Assembly (NCBI GenBank): GCA_963629425.1
Contig: CAVGIU010000002.1
Location: forward strand, 112-64,111
DNA length: 64,000 nucleotides
Direction: 5' to 3'
Source of the DNA: Oscillospiraceae bacterium
GTDB lineage: Bacteria; Bacillota; Clostridia; Oscillospirales; Oscillospiraceae
The position numbers were made by a program, and so were the translations under genes. Of this stretch, positions 6,008 to 55,982 are shown in pieces. Numbering within the stretch: the first letter of the stretch is position 1; the number at the start of each line of letters is the position of its first letter. Below the pieces are notes generated by a model. The model made no database searches. It had not been told where the DNA came from and was given only the letters and a program-made list of their open reading frames with translations.

Positions 6008-6237
6008 CTATGGACGAAATACTTGAAATACTCGACGGCCTCGGCCTGGATGCAGACTTTAAAAACTGCACGACGCTCATTGACGACGGCATTCTCGAAA
6101 GCCTCGATATCGTTACCATTATTGCGGAGCTTTCCGACGCTTTCGATATAACCATTCCCGCGCGCGATATCGTGCCCGAGAATTTTAACTCCGCCGAAGC
6201 CATGCTGAGCATGGTAAACCGCCTGCTCGACGAATAA
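6004..6237 (+). CDS. Small carrier protein, DltC-like
   Basis: 77 aa from GTG 6004, or 75 aa from ATG 6010. DDGILESLDIVTIIAELSDAFDI matches the DltC/ACP phosphopantetheinyl-Ser context. Overlaps the ligase stop codon. Confidence 0.8.
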   Translation: MTMDEILEILDGLGLDADFKNCTTLIDDGILESLDIVTIIAELSDAFDITIPARDIVPENFNSAEAMLSMVNRLLDE

Positions 6238-6240
6238 GCC

Positions 6241-7824
6241 GTGCTTTTCACGTCCTATGGCTTCATAGCCTTTTTGGCAGTGCTTTTTGCGCTGTACTAT
6301 GTGATACCCAGGCGCTTTCAGTGGCTGCTGCTTCTCGCCGCGGACATAGTATTCTATGCCTGCGCGGGCTGGAAGGGTCTGTGCTTCATGGCGGCGACGG
6401 TCGTCATCTCGTGGGCGGCGACCAACCTCATGGGTGTGTCGCTTAAGAAGCAAAAGGCGTTTTTATCCTCTCCCGAGGGCAAGACGCTTGAGCGCCCCGA
6501 ACGCAAGGCATACAAAAAGCAGTGCGAAAAGCGCCGCAAGCTGATATTTGTGCTGGCGCTTGTTGCCGATCTCGGCATACTCGCCGCACTCAAATATACA
6601 AACTTCCTGATAAATAACGTAAACTCGCTCTTTTCTGCCGGTATCGCGGCGGTTGACTGGGTGCTGCCCCTCGGCATATCGTTTTATACCTTCCAGACCG
6701 TCAGCTATGTTATCGACGTGTATTGGGAAAAGGTCGAGCCGGAGAAGAATATCCTGCGCGTTGCGCTGTTTACATCGTTTTTCCCGCTGCTCATTCAGGG
6801 ACCCATTTCGCGCTTCGGCGACCTTAAGGATACCCTTTTTGCCGGGCATAAGGCCGATTTCAAGCAGATATCCTTCGGACTTCAGCGCATACTGTGGGGC
6901 TATTTTAAAAAGCTCGTCATTGCCGACAGGCTGCTTGTCGCCGTGACCGCGCTGTGCGGCGATCCCGAGGCGTACACGGGCGCGTATGTTTTCATAGGCG
7001 CGGTTCTGTACGCGGCCGAGCTCTACGCCGACTTCACCGGCGGCATAGATATCACTATCGGTATAGCGCAGGTGCTGGGTATAAGCGTGAAGGAAAACTT
7101 CATTCGCCCGTACTTTTCGCGCAATATCGCCGAGTATTGGCGGCGCTGGCACATTTCGATGGGCACATGGTTCAAGGATTATATCTTCTATCCGCTGTCC
7201 GTCGCGCCGTGGCTTTTGAAGCTCTCAAAAGGCGCGCGCAAAAAAATATCCGACGGCTTCGGAAGAAAGCTGTCGGTGTATGTCTCGACGATCGTTACAT
7301 GGTTCCTCACCGGCCTTTGGCACGGAGCTGCGTGGAACTTCGTCGTGTGGGGACTTCTCAACGCCTTTTTCATCCTGCTTGCCGAGGAGTTTAAGCCCGT
7401 TTCGCAGCGCTTTCGCGCAAAGCACGAAAAGCTTGTCTCCGGCTTTGGTTACAGGGTGTTTGAAACGCTCAGAACATTCCTGCTCATGTGCTCGCTGCGC
7501 GTTCTCGACTGCTATCGCGACGTAACAGTGTCCTTCCGCGCGATAGGCACGGTGTTTACCGACTTTAACTGGCGCGAGGCGTTTTCAGGAACGCTTTTGC
7601 AGCTGGGGCTGACGGGCGCAGACTACATCGTCGCGTTTTGCGGCGTTATCGTCATGTTCGCCGTCTCCTGCGTGCAGGAAAAGCGCGGCAGCGTGCGCGA
7701 GGTGCTGTGGGAAAAGCCTGTTTTGAGCTACGCGGCGTTCTTTGTTCTCGCCATCGCTGTCCTCACCCTGGGAGCTTACGGTGTGGGCTACGATGCGTCG
7801 CAGTTTATCTATAATCAGTTCTGA
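6241..7824 (+). CDS. MBOAT-family membrane O-acyltransferase (DltB/AlgI-like)
   Basis: 527 aa, polytopic. Conserved blocks RRWHISMGTWFKDYIFYPL and TGLWHGAAWNF (His-containing MBOAT core). GTG start 4 nt after the carrier-protein stop. Confidence 0.85.
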   Translation: MLFTSYGFIAFLAVLFALYYVIPRRFQWLLLLAADIVFYACAGWKGLCFMAATVVISWAATNLMGVSLKKQKAFLSSPEGKTLERPERKAYKKQCEKRRKLIFVLALVADLGILAALKYTNFLINNVNSLFSAGIAAVDWVLPLGISFYTFQTVSYVIDVYWEKVEPEKNILRVALFTSFFPLLIQGPISRFGDLKDTLFAGHKADFKQISFGLQRILWGYFKKLVIADRLLVAVTALCGDPEAYTGAYVFIGAVLYAAELYADFTGGIDITIGIAQVLGISVKENFIRPYFSRNIAEYWRRWHISMGTWFKDYIFYPLSVAPWLLKLSKGARKKISDGFGRKLSVYVSTIVTWFLTGLWHGAAWNFVVWGLLNAFFILLAEEFKPVSQRFRAKHEKLVSGFGYRVFETLRTFLLMCSLRVLDCYRDVTVSFRAIGTVFTDFNWREAFSGTLLQLGLTGADYIVAFCGVIVMFAVSCVQEKRGSVREVLWEKPVLSYAAFFVLAIAVLTLGAYGVGYDASQFIYNQF

Positions 7825-10741: not shown

Positions 10742-10803
10742 TTGACAAGCGGCGGGAGAGTGCTTATAATAAGAACAAACGTTGCGCAACGCGTGTTGCG
10801 CAA
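10742..10803 (+). promoter_or_regulatory. Sigma-A-type promoter (TTGACA-17-TATAAT) plus a tandem palindromic operator for the TetR/ABC operon
   Basis: TTGACA at 10742-10747 and TATAAT at 10765-10770. Two copies of the self-complementary octamer TTGCGCAA at 10782-10789 and 10796-10803, just upstream of the RBS. Confidence 0.55.
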
Positions 10804-10821
10804 GCAAAAGGAGTGATATCG

Positions 10822-11388
10822 ATGCCGCCAAGAGTAAAATTTTCACGCGAGGAGATCATTGCTGCTGCGCTGGATATAGTGCGTGAGGGCGGAATGACGG
10901 CGCTCACGGCACGCAGCCTGGCAGCTGAATTAGGCTCATCGGCAAAGCCTGTGTTCGGGCTTTTCGAGAATATGCAGGAGGTGCAGAATGAGGTGATGCT
11001 CGCCGCCAACGCCGAGTATCAGAGCTTTTTGCGCACCGAGATGATGCGCGGCATATATAAGCCCTATAAGGCCAGCGGCATGGCGTATATTGCCTTTGCC
11101 CGCAAGGAAAAAGAGCTGTTCAAGCTTCTTTTCATGCGCGACAGGACGGATGAGCGCATAGACGCAAAGGATGACAGCATAGATGATATCATAGCGATAA
11201 TTTCCCGCAATACGGGGCTGAGCGAGGAGGACGCGCGACTTTTCCACCTCGAGATGTGGATATTTGTCCACGGTATTGCAACCATGATAGTGACAAATTA
11301 TCTCGACTGGGAAGAGGGGCACATAAGCCGCGCGCTGACCGATGCGTATGAGGGACTGAAGGCGCGCTGGTGCGGGGAAGAAAAATGA
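10822..11388 (+). CDS. TetR-family transcriptional regulator
   Basis: About 188 aa. N-terminal HTH region REEIIAAALDIVREGGMTALTARSLAAELGSSAKPVF. ATG 10822 lies 8 nt after aaaggag. Confidence 0.85.
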   Translation: MPPRVKFSREEIIAAALDIVREGGMTALTARSLAAELGSSAKPVFGLFENMQEVQNEVMLAANAEYQSFLRTEMMRGIYKPYKASGMAYIAFARKEKELFKLLFMRDRTDERIDAKDDSIDDIIAIISRNTGLSEEDARLFHLEMWIFVHGIATMIVTNYLDWEEGHISRALTDAYEGLKARWCGEEK

Positions 11389-12116
11389 TGGGTGCAATAA
11401 GAATAACGGGACTTACGAAAAAATATAAGGAGCTCACCGCCGTCGACGGGCTTGAGCTCAGCGTCCGGCAGGGCGAGCTGTTTGCGCTTCTGGGCGTAAA
11501 CGGCGCGGGCAAGACCACGACGATAAAAATGCTCTCGTGCCTGACAGCGCCCACGTCGGGCGAGGCGTACCTCGGCGGAAAGAGTATCGTTTCGCAGCCG
11601 AATGAGGTAAAGTGCATCATCGGCGTATCTCCGCAGGAGACGGCGGTCGCGCCGAATCTGACGGTTAGAGAAAATCTGGAGCTCATGTGCGGCGTGCACG
11701 GGATGTCAAAGGAAAAAACGCGCGAAAGGGTAAATGCGCTGTGCGAAGAATTCGAGCTTCATGAGGTCATGCCCCGCAAGGCCGGCAAGCTATCCGGCGG
11801 CTGGCAGCGCAGGCTCAGCATAGCCATGGCGCTCACGGGCGATCCGGAGATACTGTTTCTCGATGAGCCGACGCTGGGACTCGACGTTATCGCGCGCAGC
11901 GAGCTGTGGGACACCGTGCGCGCTCTCAAGGGCAAGAAGACCATAATACTCACGACGCACTATATGGAGGAGGCCGAGGAGCTGTCCGACCGCATAGGCA
12001 TCATGCGCGGCGGCAGGCTTCTGGCGCTCGGCACGGCGCAGGAGCTCAAGGCACTGGCGGGAAAGGAAAAATTTGAGGACGCGTTCGTTGCAATAGTAAA
12101 GGGGGAGAGCAAATGA
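11385..12116 (+). CDS. ABC transporter ATP-binding protein (ABC-2 exporter type)
   Basis: Walker A GVNGAGKTT, signature LSGGWQRR, Walker B ILFLDEPT. ATGA overlap with the tetR stop. Confidence 0.9.
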   Translation: MMGAIRITGLTKKYKELTAVDGLELSVRQGELFALLGVNGAGKTTTIKMLSCLTAPTSGEAYLGGKSIVSQPNEVKCIIGVSPQETAVAPNLTVRENLELMCGVHGMSKEKTRERVNALCEEFELHEVMPRKAGKLSGGWQRRLSIAMALTGDPEILFLDEPTLGLDVIARSELWDTVRALKGKKTIILTTHYMEEAEELSDRIGIMRGGRLLALGTAQELKALAGKEKFEDAFVAIVKGESK

Positions 12117-12844
12117 AGATGCTGACCTTTTCCTCACGCACGGCAAAGGAGATACTGCGCGACCCCGTAAACCTCGGCTTCGGACTGGGCTTTCCCGTCG
12201 TTCTCATCCTGTTGCTGTCGGCAATTCAGGCAAATGTGCCCGTCTCGCTGTTTGAGATAGAAAAGCTCGCGCCGGGCATGACGATATTCGGCCTGTCGTT
12301 TATGACGCTTTTCTCCGCAACGCTCATCGCGAAGGACCGCGAAAGCGCACTTTTGCAGCGGCTTTATACGACACCGCTGACCGCCGCGGACTTCATCTTC
12401 GGCTACACGCTGCCGATTCTGCCCATCGCGCTGGCTCAGGCCGTTGTGTGCTTCATAACGGCGTTTTTCCTCGGCATGGAGATCACGGTAAACGTCCTGT
12501 GGGCGGTGCTCATGACAATTCCGGCTGCGGTGTTTTTCATCGCGCTCGGCCTTTTGTGCGGAAGCGTATTTAACGTAAAACAGGTCGGCGGCATGTGCGG
12601 CGCGCTGCTGACTAACCTCACCGCCTGGCTCTCGGGCATATGGTTCGACCTCGACCTCGTGAGCGGCGCGTTTAAGAAGATCGCAGAGCTTCTGCCATTC
12701 TGCCACGCGGTACGGGTCGAGCAAGCCGTCTGCGCGGGGAAATTCGGCGATATCCGGCCCGATCTTGCGTGGGTCATTGCCTACGCCGCCGTCGCTGTGA
12801 TATTTTCGGTCGTGCTGTTCCTGCGGCAGATGAGAAGACAATAG
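12113..12844 (+). CDS. ABC-2 family transporter permease
   Basis: 243 aa with about six TM helices. Overlaps the ATPase stop. Confidence 0.8.
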   Translation: MKMLTFSSRTAKEILRDPVNLGFGLGFPVVLILLLSAIQANVPVSLFEIEKLAPGMTIFGLSFMTLFSATLIAKDRESALLQRLYTTPLTAADFIFGYTLPILPIALAQAVVCFITAFFLGMEITVNVLWAVLMTIPAAVFFIALGLLCGSVFNVKQVGGMCGALLTNLTAWLSGIWFDLDLVSGAFKKIAELLPFCHAVRVEQAVCAGKFGDIRPDLAWVIAYAAVAVIFSVVLFLRQMRRQ

Positions 12845-17071: not shown

Positions 17072-17084
17072 TTTTTCAGAGGCG

Positions 17085-17190
17085 CACGGACGCATCTACG
17101 GATACGGTGATTGCGGTTGCCCGGTGTCGAAGCTGCCGACGAAACTGTGCTTGCATCGCCCTACGGCGTTGCGGTCTTGGTCGGAACTTA
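17085..17190 (+). repeat. Copy 1 of a second repeat family (R2); shares an exact 24-nt block with 55372-55395 on the opposite strand
   Basis: ATACGGTGATTGCGGTTGCCCGGT at 17102-17125 equals the reverse complement of 55372-55395. Weaker similarity continues for about 80 nt (CTGCCGACGAAAC vs CTGCTGACAAAAC; GTCTTGGTCGGAAC vs GTCTTCGGTGCAC). Confidence 0.6.
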
Positions 17191-17375: not shown

Positions 17376-19196
17376 ATGCAGAAACTCAGAAATGTTGCGA
17401 TCATCGCGCACGTTGACCACGGCAAGACCACGCTTGTCGACGAGATGCTCAAGCAGAGCGGCGTTTACCGCGAAAATCAGGAGATAGTTGAGCGAGTCAT
17501 GGACTCCAACGACCTTGAGCGCGAGCGCGGAATCACCATCATGGCGAAGAATACCGCCGTGCAGTACGGCGATACGAAAATAAACATCGTCGACACCCCG
17601 GGACACGCCGATTTCGGCGGCGAGGTCGAGCGTATACTCAAGATGGTCAACGGCGTTATCCTGCTTGTTGACGCGGCCGAGGGGCCTATGCCGCAGACGA
17701 GATTCGTCCTGTCGCGCGCGCTTGAGCTCGGCCACAGGGTCATAGTTGTCGTCAATAAGATCGACCGCCCCGACCAGCGCATCCATGAGGTCATCGACGA
17801 GGTGCTCGAGCTTCTTATGGATCTCGACGCGACCGACGAGCAGCTCGATTCCCCGATGCTGTTCTGCTCCGGCCGCCAGGGTACGGCGAGCTACTCGCCC
17901 GAGGTTCCGGGCACGGATCTCAAGCCTCTGTTCGATACCATATTGGAGTACATCCCCGAGCCCGAGCAGGATGTCGACAGCCCGTTCCAGATGCTCGTTT
18001 CCAGCGTAGACTATAACGAGTACGTCGGCCGCATTGCCATCGGCCGTATCGAGCGCGGCGTCATAAAGCAGAATCAGGAGATCGAGGTTTGCAACTATCA
18101 CGCGCCGGACGCTGCCCCCATGAAGGCAAAGGCCGTGTCGCTGTACGAGTTTGACGGCCTGAACAAGGTTCCCGTGACCGAGGCAACAGCGGGTAATATC
18201 ATAGCAATGAGCGGCATCGGCGACATTACCATCGGCGATACTATCTGCGCGAAGGGCTTTGCCGAGCCTCTGCCCTTTGTCAAGATCTCCGCTCCCACGC
18301 TGGAGATGACCTTCTCGGTAAACGACAGCCCCTTTGCCGGCCGCGAGGGCAAATTCGTCACCTCGCGCCAGATCCGCGACAGACTTATCCGCGAGACGCT
18401 TAAGGACGTGTCGCTGCGTGTCACCGACGTTGACGGCGCGACAGATTCCTTTAACGTTGCAGGCCGCGGCGAAATGAGCCTGAGTATACTTATCGAGACC
18501 ATGCGCCGCGAGGGCTATGAGTTCCAGGTCTCGCCTCCGCGCGTGCTGTATAAGGAGATAGACGGCGCGACTTGCGAGCCTATCGAGCGTGTCGTTATCG
18601 ATGTTCCGTCCGACTACATGGGCGCTGTTATGGAAAAGCTCGGCGCGCGTAAGGGCGAGTTCGTCGAGATGACCCCCGTCGGCAACCGCGTAAAGCTGAG
18701 CTATCTTGTTCCGTCGCGCGGCCTGTTCGGCTATCGCAACGAATTTTTGACCGACACCAAGGGCGAGGGCATTATGGCCTCCGTTTTTGAAAAGTACGAG
18801 CCGTATAAGGGCGATATCGCACGCCGCAACACGGGCTCGCTCATCGCATTCGAGACCGGCGAGGCCGTCGCATACGGCATTTGGAACGCGCAGGAGCGCG
18901 GTGCGATGTTCATCACCCCCGGCACGAAGGTATATGCCGGCATGATCGTCGGCGTCTGCCCGAAGTCGGATGATGTCGCCGTAAACGTCTGCCGCACGAA
19001 ACATCTGACCAATACCCGCGCCTCCGGCTCGGACGAGGCTCTGCGCCTCATCCCGCCCAGACAGATGAGCCTTGAGCAGTGCCTTGAGTTTTTGGCCGAT
19101 GACGAGCTTCTTGAGGTCACCCCCAAAAGTCTGCGCCTGCGCAAGAGCATCCTCGACCACGGCTTGAGAATGAAGACCGTAATGCGCAACAGATAA
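17376..19196 (+). CDS. typA: Translational GTPase TypA/BipA
   Basis: 606 aa. G-domain motifs AHVDHGKTT, DTPGHADF and NKID. EF-G-like domain order with the BipA-specific C-terminus. Confidence 0.95.
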   Translation: MQKLRNVAIIAHVDHGKTTLVDEMLKQSGVYRENQEIVERVMDSNDLERERGITIMAKNTAVQYGDTKINIVDTPGHADFGGEVERILKMVNGVILLVDAAEGPMPQTRFVLSRALELGHRVIVVVNKIDRPDQRIHEVIDEVLELLMDLDATDEQLDSPMLFCSGRQGTASYSPEVPGTDLKPLFDTILEYIPEPEQDVDSPFQMLVSSVDYNEYVGRIAIGRIERGVIKQNQEIEVCNYHAPDAAPMKAKAVSLYEFDGLNKVPVTEATAGNIIAMSGIGDITIGDTICAKGFAEPLPFVKISAPTLEMTFSVNDSPFAGREGKFVTSRQIRDRLIRETLKDVSLRVTDVDGATDSFNVAGRGEMSLSILIETMRREGYEFQVSPPRVLYKEIDGATCEPIERVVIDVPSDYMGAVMEKLGARKGEFVEMTPVGNRVKLSYLVPSRGLFGYRNEFLTDTKGEGIMASVFEKYEPYKGDIARRNTGSLIAFETGEAVAYGIWNAQERGAMFITPGTKVYAGMIVGVCPKSDDVAVNVCRTKHLTNTRASGSDEALRLIPPRQMSLEQCLEFLADDELLEVTPKSLRLRKSILDHGLRMKTVMRNR

Positions 19197-19197
19197 G

Positions 19198-19502
19198 AAA
19201 AAGCTCCCAAAGGCCGGCTGAGACAAGAAAACATACGGTTTTGAAGCGATCTTTTCCGCATCTGCTGCGTCTGAGACCTTGAGAATACGTCAGTATGCTC
19301 TGCGGCCTCATCCTTGCAGAAACAAAAAATCTCAGCTTCAAAACTGCGAGCACCCGAAAAGACGGAGCATGTGCGAGGTCAAGGCGCGGCGGTGAAGGCA
19401 TACTTTGCGTATATCAAGCCGCCGCAACGATGACATTCGTGCATACTCCGCCTTTTTCGGACGTGTGTTTTCTTATCTCAACCGGCCTAATGGAGAGCTT
19501 TT
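19198..19502 (+). repeat. Repeat family R1, copy A: 25-bp inverted arms (19212-19236 and 19463-19487) around a 226-bp structured core
   Basis: Left arm GGCCGGCTGAGACAAGAAAACATAC and right arm GTGTGTTTTCTTATCTCAACCGGCC are 22/25 complementary. Outer stem AAAAAGCTCCC..GGAGAGCTTTT. The core matches the reverse complement of the core at 39474-39698 at about 90 percent. Confidence 0.85.
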
Positions 19503-23047: not shown

Positions 23048-23639
23048 TATAAAGCTGCGCGTTGCGCGCCCCTCGGACGCGGCCGAGCTTTTGGAGCTCT
23101 ACGCGCCCTATGTCGAGGACACAGCCATAAGCTTCGAGACCGTCGTTCCGAGCCTTGATGAGTTTACCGGGCGCATGGTTCACAAGCTCCCGTATTATCC
23201 GTACATTGTCGCGGAAAAGGACGGCGAGCTTCTGGGCTATGCCTATTTAAGCCCCTTTGTCGGCCGCGCAGCCTACGACCGGGCGGCGGAGACGACAATA
23301 TATCTGCGCCTTGACTGCCGTCATATCGGCATCGGAAAAATGCTGTACACAGCACTGGAGAACATCGCCCGAGCCCAGGGCATAATAAATCTCGAGGCCT
23401 GCATCGGCTGGACGGACACGCCCGACGAGCATCTTACCAATAACAGCGCCGAGTATCACGAGCACCTCGGCTACCGCATGGTCGGCAGGTTTTATAAGTG
23501 CGGCTATAAATTCGGAACATGGTACGACATGGTGTGGATGGAAAAGCTCCTCGGCGAGCATCCCGACACGCCGGGCGATGTAATCCCGTTTTCCGAGCTC
23601 AGCGCCGAAACACTCAAAAATGCCGGTATAGAGGTATGA
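23040..23639 (+). CDS. GNAT-family N-acetyltransferase (phosphinothricin/MSO acetyltransferase-like)
   Basis: 199 aa from MNDIKLRVARPSDAAE. HIGIGKMLYTALE is an acetyl-CoA-binding motif. The start overlaps the malQ stop. Confidence 0.85.
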   Translation: MNDIKLRVARPSDAAELLELYAPYVEDTAISFETVVPSLDEFTGRMVHKLPYYPYIVAEKDGELLGYAYLSPFVGRAAYDRAAETTIYLRLDCRHIGIGKMLYTALENIARAQGIINLEACIGWTDTPDEHLTNNSAEYHEHLGYRMVGRFYKCGYKFGTWYDMVWMEKLLGEHPDTPGDVIPFSELSAETLKNAGIEV

Positions 23640-23640
23640 A

Positions 23641-23665
23641 AAAAGCACCCATGGGGTGCTTTTTT
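23641..23665 (+). terminator. Rho-independent terminator (GCACCC/GGGTGC stem family)
   Basis: aaaaGCACCCatGGGGTGCtttttt directly after the GNAT stop. Confidence 0.8.
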
Positions 23666-23670
23666 CGTTT

Positions 23671-23824
23671 AAGCTGACGGGAGTTGAACACCTACCGGTT
23701 TTGGCAGGCTGATTTTCACTCATGCTGCGTTAAAACCCTTGAAAATACGTCAGTATTCTCTGTGGGCTTTGCCTTGCCTGAGCAAAAATCAGCTCTGTCA
23801 AAACTGCAAGGCACCTGTCAGCTT
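23671..23824 (+). repeat. Repeat family R1, copy C: diverged half-element (module 1 only) with its own short inverted ends AAGCTGAC/GTCAGCTT
   Basis: CCTTGAAAATACGTCAGTATTCTCTG and GTCAAAACTGCAAGGCACC align with 19275-19300 and 19335-19352 of copy A. About 75 percent identity over about 120 nt. Confidence 0.65.
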
Positions 23825-23831
23825 AATTTAT

Positions 23832-39004: not shown

Positions 39005-39433
39005 ATGAAAAAATTCGCAGCGCTTATACTTGTCGCAGTATGTATTCTCTCTCTAGCCTCATGCTCGGCAAAGCGCGAAAAAGAGATATGCATTTGGACG
39101 CATGATCTCAAAGCAGAGGACATCACAAGCGCCTTAGCGTGGAGCTGGGATGGCGAAGACGATGTCCAAAACTATCTCAGCCAAGATGAAACGGCCGAGC
39201 TTGTTTCCTTGCTCAATAAGCTGACGGACGACAGCTTTACCGAAAACAGCGAATGCGTAGGCGGTACTCCGGAATACGGCATCGTGCTCGAAATTGACGG
39301 AGAGTACTTTTGCATAAACCAGTCTATTGCGCCGCAGGGAGCCTTGGAGACGGAATACGGAGACAAGTTGTGGTGGATAGATAACGATGAGCTCACGGAC
39401 TTCGTCAAAAGCGTGTGTAAGGTTGCAGATTAA
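39005..39433 (+). CDS. Lipoprotein of unknown function
   Basis: 142 aa. Lipobox ILSLASC. Confidence 0.55.
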   Translation: MKKFAALILVAVCILSLASCSAKREKEICIWTHDLKAEDITSALAWSWDGEDDVQNYLSQDETAELVSLLNKLTDDSFTENSECVGGTPEYGIVLEIDGEYFCINQSIAPQGALETEYGDKLWWIDNDELTDFVKSVCKVAD

Positions 39434-39435
39434 TA

Positions 39436-39736
39436 AAAAACTCCCCAAGGCCGGCTGAGACAAGAAAACATACGCCCGAGAAAACGGAGCATGCACGAAT
39501 GTCGTCGTTGCGACGGCTTGGTATACACAAAGTATGCCTTCGCCGCCGCGCCTTGACCTCGCACATGCTCCGTCTTTTCGGGTGCTCGCAGTTTTGAAGC
39601 TGAGATTTTTTGCCCCTGTAAGGATGAGACCGCAGAGCATACTGACGTATTCTCAAGGTTTCAGACGCAGCAGGGGCGTAAAAGATCGCTTCAAAACCGT
39701 GTGTTTTCTTATCTCAGTCGGCCAAGGGCGTTTTTT
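39436..39736 (-). repeat. Repeat family R1, copy B: same arm polarity as copy A (arms 39449-39473 and 39699-39723) but the 225-bp core is inverted
   Basis: Left arm identical to copy A (25/25) and right arm 23/25, both read on the plus strand. The core at 39474-39698 is the reverse complement of 19237-19462 at about 90 percent. The outer stem runs into a T6 tract on both strands. Confidence 0.85.
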
Positions 39737-40106
39737 ATTTCTTCTCCCTCGGCTTAAAGAGCAGGGCGATGATTATTCCGAAGAACACGGCGGCGCATAT
39801 GCCCGCTGCCGCGGCGGTGAAGCCGCCCGTGAACGCGCCGAGAACGCCGCTTTCGGAAACGGCCTTTTCCACGCCCTTTGCAAGCGCCGAGCCGAAGCCC
39901 GTCAGCGGGACGGTCGCTCCCGCGCCCGCCCATTTTGCAAGTGGGGAGTACAGCCCAACGGCCTCAAGAATGAGCCCTGCCACGACGTACACTGTCAATA
40001 TCCGCGCGGGGGTGAGCTTTGTTTTGTCGATGAGCAGCTGACCAATGGCGCACAGAGCGCCGCCCACGGCGAAAACCTTGAGATATTCAATAAGCATGCT
40101 TTTCAC
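39735..40106 (-). CDS. spoVAE: Stage V sporulation protein AE (SpoVAEB-type)
   Basis: 123 aa. FAVGGALCAIGQLLID ... GAGATVPLTGFG. Confidence 0.88.
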   Translation of the reverse strand: MKSMLIEYLKVFAVGGALCAIGQLLIDKTKLTPARILTVYVVAGLILEAVGLYSPLAKWAGAGATVPLTGFGSALAKGVEKAVSESGVLGAFTGGFTAAAAGICAAVFFGIIIALLFKPREKK

Positions 40107-55149: not shown

Positions 55150-55375
55150 CGGTATCAAAGCCGCAGAGGAAACCGCGACGAGCAGATAGCCGACAGCGGA
55201 TAGCTGTATGTGTGCGGCCGTGCCGCACGGATTTGAACGGGCAGCCCCACCGGCTCGGACGCTTGCGGCCGAGCCACCTTCCCTTACACAGAGGGCAGGA
55301 GAAGTGCACCGAAGACTGTACCCCAATCATATGGAAGGCGGCAGCCTCATGGTTTTGTCAGCAGAGGCGATACCG
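55150..55375 (-). ncRNA. Candidate structured RNA or repeat element (R2 copy 2) in the dpaB 3' region; class unknown
   Basis: Closing helix CGGTATC (55150-55156) / GATACCG (55369-55375). Internal helices GGCTCGG..CCGAGCC (55252-55275), GTGCGGC..GCCGCAC (55212-55228), and CCGCCTTCC/GGAAGGTGG, which contains a G-U pair only on the minus strand. Shares a 24-nt block with 17102-17125. Confidence 0.3.
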
Positions 55376-55406
55376 GGCAACCGCAATCACCGTATTCGCA
55401 GGTGCC

Positions 55407-55982
55407 TCAATGCGCCGCTAAAAGAGGCTGGATCTGTTCACCGGCGAGGGCGGACCCGAGAGTTTTGTCTATCAGCGAGAAGTCGGAGGCCATGGAGAAT
55501 GGCTTTTTGACGGGATCATCCTGCCTGAATGGGACGAAATAGACGTTTTTGCGGTTTAAAAGCCCCGCAATGTTCGGAGCCGAGCCCGAGAGCGCGTCGT
55601 TTGTCGAAAACGCAATGACGAGGGGCTTTGAATTTCTGAGATGTGCCTTTGCGGCCATGGTAACGGCCGTGTCCGTTATGCCGTGATTTAGCTTCGCCAT
55701 GGTGTTTCCCGTGCATGGGGCTATTATGAGTGCCTCCATGGGTTTTGCCGGGCCTAAAGGCTCTGCCTCGGCGATCGAATGCACGGGCTCTGCGCCGCAC
55801 AGCGATTTAAGACGCGAGATAAAGTCTGCGGATGCGCCGAAGCGGGTGTCGGTCGCCGCAGCAGTCTCGCTCATGATGGGCACAAGCTCATATTTATCGG
55901 CAAGGACGGCAAGCTGCGAAAACAGCTTATCATATGTGCAGTAAGAGCCGCAAAGGGCAATGCCAACGCGCGGTTTAGTCAT
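55407..55982 (-). CDS. dpaB: Dipicolinate synthase subunit B
   Basis: 191 aa, flavoprotein fold. RVGIALCGSYCTYDK and APCTGNTMAKL. Confidence 0.9.
   Translation of the reverse strand: MTKPRVGIALCGSYCTYDKLFSQLAVLADKYELVPIMSETAAATDTRFGASADFISRLKSLCGAEPVHSIAEAEPLGPAKPMEALIIAPCTGNTMAKLNHGITDTAVTMAAKAHLRNSKPLVIAFSTNDALSGSAPNIAGLLNRKNVYFVPFRQDDPVKKPFSMASDFSLIDKTLGSALAGEQIQPLLAAH

Follow-up and report, generated by a model that had tools for sequence, protein, structure and literature searches.

An R1 element between the lipoprotein gene and spoVAE

The window analyzed here, a whole stretch of 64,000 nucleotides from an Oscillospiraceae contig, contains a convergent gene pair separated by a long structured gap. 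The lipoprotein open reading frame (ORF) ends with a stop codon at 39431–39433, and spoVAE ends on the opposite strand at 39735–39737. The identity of spoVAE is supported by a match to the Pfam family PF03862, and the neighboring gene matches SpoVAD in Pfam. The entire 301-base gap is a single nested palindrome (39435–39736), which is copy B of a repeat named R1. The first-pass annotation had proposed that copy B fills this gap, and both the stop codon positions and the extent of the palindrome bear this out. R1 is probably a non-autonomous and gene-less element of the miniature inverted-repeat transposable element (MITE) kind, similar in type to the Correia elements, and copy B would represent an insertion into the loop of the terminator between these two genes, with its core inverted relative to that of copy A elsewhere in the window.

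Copy B begins one base past the lipoprotein stop codon with the left half of a host bidirectional terminator (39435–39448), which consists of an A6 tract and a GC-rich stem (AAAAAACTCCCCAA). Next is the left 26-nt terminal inverted repeat, or arm (39449–39474, plus strand; GGCCGGCTGAGACAAGAAAACATACG), which has the same sequence as its counterpart in copy A. The core (39475–39697) lies on the minus strand and includes hairpin H2 (39475–39582, about 108 nt), an 8-nt junction (39583–39590), and hairpin H1 (39591–39697, about 107 nt), all on that strand. H2 is the most conserved part of the R1 family, and its central block, GTGCGAGGTCAAGGCGCGGCGG...CAAGCCGTCGCAACGA, is near-invariant and also found in the distant members L132 and L134 (loci and contigs used for comparison carry L numbers). 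The H1/H2 junction reads TGCGAGCA on the minus strand and is predicted to form a 3-bp mini-hairpin (helix 6 of the covariation analysis below), and H1 has an invariant base (GTTTT...AAAAC) and an invariant apex (TTGAGAATACGTCAGTATGCTC). The right 26-nt arm (39698–39723, minus strand) reads GGCCGACTGAGATAAGAAAACACACG on its own strand and belongs to a variant arm type that is always on the T-rich (TTA-type) junction side. Finally, the right half of the host terminator (39724–39736) consists of AAGGGCG and a T6 tract, and this T-tract overlaps the spoVAE stop codon.

The two outer segments (39435–39448 and 39724–39736) pair with each other, and a T6 tract then follows on each strand. The predicted RNA of either strand consists of an outer stem and two long hairpins, with folding energies of −161 and −165 kcal/mol for the two strands of the gap (z = −14 on both). 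Pairing and folding are thus in agreement with the bidirectional-terminator geometry described earlier, in which the outer stem runs into T6 on both strands. In place of a short terminator loop (3–8 nt), copy B has the 275-nt element as its "loop", and the terminator scanner called no conventional terminator in the gap of copy A or copy B. A scan of the same two gaps for promoter-like (sigma-70-like) sites found none on either strand, and ARAGORN called no tRNA or tmRNA. For the window and eight related loci, R1 had no match in Rfam 15 at the gathering score, the RNase P, FMN, and guanidine-I matches being unrelated to R1, and a search of copy A with E values up to 10 returned chance-level matches only.

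The ORFs drawn across the element had been suspected to be spurious, and this was correct: ORFs overlapping R1 match no Pfam family, copies differ by 1-nt indels that break the reading frames, and substitutions are of the helix type rather than the codon type. The same frame-breaking indels and helix-type substitutions rule out a small conserved ORF in the core. The spurious ORFs of 83 to 199 aa, as well as the approximately 300 bases after typA and spoVAE, are now accounted for.

Distribution of the R1 family

The H1 apex pattern (GARAATACGTCAGTATNCTCTG) was found at 11 loci in species-representative genomes, all of which are metagenome-assembled genomes (MAGs) of gut Clostridia or Oscillospiraceae. 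A looser version of this pattern was found at no fewer than 120 metagenome loci, and the family counts that follow rest on the matches listed. Among these matches, 86 are complete arm-to-arm R1 copies (72 unique) with lengths of 274–277 bp, and about 20 distinct non-chimeric insertion sites are represented, all in MAGs and metagenomes of gut Oscillospiraceae/Clostridia. The 26-nt arms, GGCCGGCTGAnAnAAGAAAACAnACG and its complement, are present in every complete copy. A scan of viral contigs with the H1 apex found no matches, the plasmid collection likewise had none, and two weak matches in phage records are both located in unverified gut contigs. One of these two, L132 (1355–1660 of MT835783.1, an unverified gut "Bacteriophage sp." contig), is a distant R1 member and served as an outgroup. 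The arm ends, the H1 apex core (ATACGCCAGTAT), and the H2 center of L132 are as in R1, the H1 stems are entirely different, and this copy also lies inside a terminator composed of an A-tract, a GC-stem, and a T-tract. Taken together, R1 is shorter than about 600 bp, lacks coding capacity, has terminal inverted repeats, occupies many unrelated loci, and exhibits presence/absence polymorphism, all of which are features of MITEs.

R1 is expected to recur often in uncultured Oscillospiraceae genomes and to break or mis-join their assemblies. In the singleton contigs L030, L035, L037, L053, L057, L102, and L111, the left flank of one R1 site is joined via the element to the right flank of another. 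These junctions are due either to chimeric assembly induced by the repeat or to real recombination events among copies.

Insertion into the loops of bidirectional terminators

Unlike the arms, the stem sequence that corresponds to 39435–39448 in copy B varies between insertion sites. The sequence immediately outside the arms is site-specific, yet it is itself an inverted repeat at the qualifying sites. By a strict ungapped test, 14 of the 20 sites have flanks that form a palindrome of A-tract, GC-stem, and T-tract, and another three or four are added when gaps are permitted. Three occupied sites have empty counterparts, all of which are plain bidirectional terminators with 3-nt loops. The first is L090 11322–11345, which reads AAAAAAACAGACGGC-TTA-GCCGTCTGTTTTT in the empty form and is occupied in L059, L068, L103, L116, and L126. 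The second is L019 5831–5853, the empty form of a site that is occupied in L090, and the third is represented by L041 and L129, which are empty forms of the occupied site in L081. Because the flanks vary by site and the empty counterparts are plain terminators, the outer stem and T6 tracts of copy B can be assigned to the host terminator. The empty sites also overturn the earlier proposal that the element replaces a conventional terminator. Rather, a mobile repeat splits the loop of a terminator that was already there.

With the T-rich side placed on the left, most junctions read TTA/GGCC...GGCC/T-TT(A), with slashes at the element borders. Perfect TTA on both sides was observed at L011, L022, L031/L042, L081, and L134, and many other sites share only TT. 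An insertion within a gene was also found. A protein search with the spurious 83-aa ORF returned only four proteins, one of which, a 141-aa chimeric "protein", led to the L134–L141 locus. At this locus, an R1 relative (L134 5902–6176) splits a tyrosine recombinase gene downstream of spo0A (L134 5161–6426; also in L135–L141). Intact orthologs from other samples match the reconstructed length of 328 aa exactly and are 90–94% identical, and an empty allele is located at L142 1501–2487. The empty allele is GTTAATCTCAGCAGC (also given as GTTAATCTCAGC), and the occupied allele is GTTAAA[element]TAATCAGCAGC (also given as GTTAAA[element]TAATCAGC). Judged from these sequences, the gene case fits a TTAA-like target with a 2–3 bp duplication (TT/AA or TTA/TAA) and a 2-nt loss. 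Some families of DDE transposases typically leave short TNA or TA duplications, which provides a lead only. The presence/absence polymorphism and the insertion within a gene show that R1 is mobile. As a separate observation, the L134 insertion lies at the edge of an apparent integrated element that has genes of the YonV_C and SprT-like types and, at 10801–12219, a DDE_Tnp_1/DUF772 transposase.

Inversion of the core and polarity of the arms

Copy A (19194–19502, plus strand) is located after typA/bipA and before a GtrA-family gene. It is composed of two terminator halves (19197–19211 and 19488–19502), two arms (19212–19237 and 19462–19487), H1 (19238–19344), and H2 (19353–19461), and is 88–91% identical to copy B. 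The arms of these two copies have the same left-right order and the core is reverse-complemented, in accordance with the first-pass annotation. The same type of rearrangement is found between orthologous sites. The lipoprotein/spoVAE site (site B) carries the element in L005, L009, L107, and the window, with flanks that are 87–92% identical. L009 and L107 have the order spoVAE, arm, H1, H2, arm, and lipoprotein gene. In L005, the whole element is opposite to that of L009 and L107, including the flanking dinucleotide. The window has the core orientation of L009 and L107 and the arms of L005, such that the left arm type remains on the lipoprotein-side flank in L005 although the core is flipped. 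Flipped cores with arm variants that stay with the flanks were also found in L126 compared to L059, L068, L103, and L116, and in L043 compared to L065, the latter case involving a composite element (see below). In total, both core orientations are present at three orthologous sites, and these differences are seen between genomes only.

The crossover points of these flips vary, being at the arm/core border in the window, in mid-arm for L126/L059, and around the whole element for L009 vs. L005. Moreover, each site that was sampled in 8–13 independent assemblies has a single orientation. Because of these variable crossover points and the uniformity of the multiply sampled sites, the core flips look like sporadic events of recombination or template switching that involve the inverted arms, rather than the work of a programmed switch. 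The H1 apex of L044 (7360–7395) forms a perfect palindrome (GGCCTTGAGAATAC-GTCA-GTATTCTCAAGGCC), and its 4-nt loop has the opposite orientation to the remainder of the hairpin. This arrangement looks like the product of template switching inside the hairpin and a small-scale signature of the process that flips the core. In addition, L056 was considered as a candidate core replacement at site B and was rejected, as the contig is truncated or chimeric and runs into unrelated sequence.

The arms show a polarity relative to the junctions. The arm variants GGCCGGTTGA and GGCCGACTGA, which have T at position 7 or A at position 6, lie on the TTA side at 12 of 12 informative sites, and the non-variant arm is always GGCCGGCTGA and next to TTT. 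Relative to this polarity, the core may have either orientation (7 vs. 5). A replication-linked polarity, as in an IS200/IS605-like single-strand mechanism, was rejected because no association with the local coding strand or GC skew was found, although this proxy is weak.

A maintained three-way fold

For covariation analysis, 19 representatives including the distant member L132 were aligned, and 500 shuffles were used as the null. Standard pairs account for 97.4% of the cells, compared to 93.4% in the shuffles. Pairs that changed on both sides number 34, compared to 11.1 ± 1.9 in the shuffles, and none of the 500 shuffles reached 34. In control comparisons with the 3′ partner slid by 1–3 columns, only 2–10 such pairs were found. 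Across 50 variants of R1 and of the sister family described below, 15 of the 28 pairs in H1 changed on both sides, and the base and apex are invariant. Because the pairs changed on both sides exceed those of the shuffles and H1 covaries, the nested-hairpin (three-way) fold is maintained.

Statistical covariation across copies, which the first-pass annotation had named as a check, was therefore found. The claim that selection acts on structure is supported by these family-wide compensatory changes, but its attribution to a sense-strand RNA is not supported by the evidence on strands given below. Similarly, the statement that differences between copies A and B tend to preserve helices holds for the family as a whole and for 6 of the 14 differences at paired positions, but the other 8 of the 14 break the pair in copy A.

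A sister family with a shared core

The H1–H2 core also occurs between unrelated ends in a second family, designated as T-type. Complete T-type copies are found in L002, L003, L004, L006, L007, L010 (about 6020–6330, minus strand), L055, L091, and L112. The ends are TAAGCnnnCGGGAGTYGAAC... and its complement, H1 is the same as that of R1, and H2 is related. These copies are present in AT-rich as well as GC-rich Clostridia with fully covarying stems. T-type copies have no Rfam family match, and no recurrent neighbor genes were found around them. The ends look like the T-arm and acceptor strand of a tRNA. A tRNA/tmRNA reading was rejected as ARAGORN found none, and a local T-arm was rejected because the two ends covary with each other (CGGGAG/CTCCCG to CAAGAG/CTCTTG), which fits a long-range pairing between them instead.

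Within the window, the half-copy reported by the first-pass annotation is confirmed as copy C (23670–23825, plus strand). It is an internally deleted T-type remnant with a TAAGCTGACGGGAG... end, H1 (23698–23804), and a ...GTCAGCTTA end, lacks H2, and is placed past the canonical terminator of the GNAT gene (23639–23665). At four or more genomic sites, T-type elements are also nested within R1, where they occupy one fixed position between H2 and the right arm. The resulting composites are 552–554 bp in length and include L047 542–1094, with others in L001, L018, L023, L043, L052, L065, L087, L093, L108, and L120. This pattern can be explained either by strongly site-specific insertion or by movement of the composite as a unit.

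Another duplicated segment of the window is unrelated to R1. A block of about 75 nt is present at 17074–17145 (plus strand) and 55352–55423 (minus strand), where the two copies are 81% identical, contain ATACGGTGATTGCGGTTGCCCGGT, and directly follow a TGA stop codon in two long intergenic gaps. This block has no Rfam match and could represent a further repeat or an RNA motif.

Nature of R1 and alternative explanations

Under the interpretation that we consider probable, copy B would have inserted at TT(A) in the loop of a terminator already shared by the lipoprotein gene and spoVAE, presumably by a transposase acting in trans. In a transcript of either direction, the arms are predicted to pair together and H1 and H2 to fold on themselves, and the resulting three-way junction would rejoin the split halves of the terminator stem just before the U-tract. 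Termination in both directions would thereby be retained, such that insertions may be tolerated. We propose that most copies sit in terminator loops because the folding element lets the terminator close and its insertion is tolerated. If true, this would illustrate how a parasite of genomes can settle where it does no harm. The flipped core may have originated from DNA inversion through recombination or template switching between the inverted arms.

Several observations weigh against this interpretation. The target duplication is short and imperfect, the empty sites are not exactly reconstructed, and the gene case shows a 2-nt discrepancy between the empty and occupied alleles. Furthermore, no transposase-bearing element with R1-matching ends was found in about 1 Mb of examined loci, the sole insertion sequence (IS) near L134 has ends unlike those of R1, and a search for an autonomous partner based on arms spaced 0.3–3.5 kb apart returned only R1/T-type composites. 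The R1 arms may resemble the Tn3 inverted repeat in outline (CTGAC...GAAAACnCACG).

The conservation of the core is a further difficulty. At site B, the 224-nt cores of the window, L005, L009, and L107 have only two differing positions (99% identity), with the rest of the differences being arm swaps, and the flanking genes are 77–91% identical overall (also given as 85–91%) and about 64–78% identical at third codon positions (also given as about 75%). In all 55 same-site pairs in which the flanks are less than 95% identical, the element is more conserved than its flanks (mean 99.1% for the element vs. 91.5% for the flanks), although these pairs are not independent. Paralogs maintain site-specific differences, as copies A and B are 91% identical, and the cores of L005 and L011, which belong to a single MAG, have 94% identity. 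Because of these site-specific differences, and because the adjacent genes at site B show no recent recombination tract, homogenization between copies and recent replacement are poor explanations. Assemblers may collapse repeats, yet site-specific variants recur in independent assemblies. In addition, the internal loops of H1 remain asymmetric and its apex is invariant, and the H1–H2 core is common to two families with unrelated ends. The constraint on H1 and the sharing of the core point to a sequence-specific function of the core, and its conservation may be attributed either to a host need for these sequences or to some protecting process.

These observations lead to the alternative that survives best, in which the H1–junction–H2 core is exapted or functional, as RNA or single-stranded DNA, and the arms are only a carrier. 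The core would be a recognition or guide module of a recombinase or HUH-type system that homes into hairpin loops, or would have been recruited by the host. This explanation is unlikely overall, and is kept alive mainly because one conserved core is carried by two unrelated pairs of ends (GGCCGG... in R1 and the T-type ends given above). It is also consistent with covarying stems, in AT-rich genomes too, next to an invariant apex, junction, and H2 center, with the 99% identity across species at one site, with a fixed arm polarity while the core takes either orientation, and with insertions exactly on the hairpin dyad. However, no recurrent neighboring gene was found, neither HEARO nor any other Rfam family matches the core, the arm polarity is not linked to coding-strand bias or GC skew, and the TT(A) duplication is a better fit to an ordinary DDE transposase. 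A related proposition, that the H1–junction–H2 core is a previously undescribed functional structured nucleic acid common to at least two mobile families of gut Clostridia, held near-invariant by purifying selection (99% identity vs. about 75% at synonymous positions nearby), homing to terminator-hairpin dyads, and flipping between arms, is possible but doubtful. Such a core could be the cis-recognition or guide module of a recombinase, or a host-recruited module at gene ends. If its conservation and sharing reflect function at the RNA or DNA level, the core would represent a new class of structured element.

It is improbable that R1 is a sense-strand structured RNA of the 3′ untranslated region (UTR) that acts on the stability, processing, or termination of the upstream transcript. 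The strong covariation of the fold and the sequence conservation far above that of the flanks would be expected of such an RNA, the element is necessarily transcribed before the distal T-tract, and four G.U pairs and one C.A are conserved in H2 when it is read on the H1-to-H2 strand. The first-pass annotation also noted that the core has the same sense relative to the upstream gene in all three copies of the window. This is trivially true, as copies B and C are between convergent genes, but tandem-gene sites across the family are mixed (about 3–4 sense vs. 2–4 antisense). The core is sense at L020, L081, and copy A of the window and antisense at L019 and L026 (the L026 site being found in 12 contigs), with weaker cases both ways. 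Moreover, the core is flipped at the orthologous spoVAE site, and the polymorphism and gene insertion described above indicate a mobile element.

The pairing evidence also does not favor the proposed sense strand. A single G-U wobble between copies A and B had been cited in support of this strand, and this example is correct but not representative. All eight of the broken pairs are A.C on the H1-to-H2 (typA-sense) strand and would be G.U on the other, so that the argument from the wobble fails. Over the 72 unique copies, G.U and A.C events are nearly balanced (33 vs. 26), as are the minority pair types (21 vs. 19). The strand opposite to the proposed sense gives the more stable RNA in 56 of these 72 copies, and does so by 23 kcal/mol for copy A (−122.5 kcal/mol for the typA-sense strand vs. 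−145.2 kcal/mol for the opposite strand). Overall, the evidence favors neither strand as the RNA.

The remaining two explanations are both very improbable. A programmed invertible switch (inverton), with a site-specific recombinase flipping the core to alter the expression of neighboring genes, would account for the 26–45 bp inverted repeats around a 224-bp segment that is in both orientations at three orthologous sites, but there is no promoter-like site in either orientation and no recombinase gene adjoining any copy, sites in 8–13 independent assemblies all have one orientation, the variable crossover points fit general recombination or template switching and not a fixed site, and the element is located at gene 3′ ends. 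Likewise, repeat-induced misjoins of metagenomes could mimic inversions and high conservation, as illustrated by the singleton contigs with mixed flanks and by the truncation of L056 into unrelated sequence, but both junctions are consistent for each orientation state, L009 and L107 reproduce each other, arm variants remain with the flanks, site-specific variants recur in independent assemblies, and the window itself contains both the copy A and copy B arrangements.

Comparison with known systems

As a probable Correia-like MITE, R1 is distinguished from described MITEs by its terminator-loop niche, the core flip, the modular core shared with a second family, and its unusual conservation. REP, BIME, and REPIN sequences are palindromic extragenic repeats at gene 3′ ends that are long-lived, vertically inherited, and conserved beyond neutral expectation. 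Among these, REPINs are hairpins of about 100 nt composed of two short REPs and are accompanied by a flanked RAYT gene. R1 is similar in being palindromic, located at gene 3′ ends, held at orthologous sites, and strongly conserved. Unlike the REPIN/RAYT system, R1 has long terminal inverted repeats and a short TT(A) duplication, and no Y1/RAYT gene was seen. Invertons are invertible promoters of gut bacteria, and R1 resembles them in having inverted repeats around a segment that is a few hundred bases long and occurs in both orientations. In contrast to invertons, R1 has no promoter or neighboring invertase, is multicopy, is located at gene 3′ ends, and has variable crossovers.

Among the small interspersed repeats of Firmicutes, the pneumococcal SPRITE, BOX, and RUP elements are enriched just downstream of genes, and these elements are modular (boxA/B/C), insert into each other, and create spurious ORFs (PMC3049150). 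The modularity of BOX is comparable to that of R1 and T-type elements, which share an H1–H2 core with different ends. However, SPRITE is itself terminator-like, whereas R1 is embedded in a host terminator with a stem that varies by site. R1 also differs from all three in having a three-way fold that is supported by covariation.

The closest parallel in kind is provided by the Correia elements (CREE/nemis) of Neisseria (PMC3049150). Both are small, lack genes, and have terminal inverted repeats that are about 26 bp long and a short A/T-rich target, both have many intergenic copies near gene ends and transcripts that fold into long hairpins, and neither is known to have a parent transposase. Unlike Correia elements, R1 is approximately twice as long, has two internal structured hairpins rather than a simple core, lacks a promoter consensus, is located on the dyad of a terminator hairpin, and is found in Clostridia. 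Inversion of Correia elements in Neisseria has been reported by Elbeyioglu et al. (2017; cited in PMC10969869), and R1 would independently add a second miniature transposon with an inverting core. R1 and Correia elements have no sequence similarity, and the likeness between them is one of kind only.

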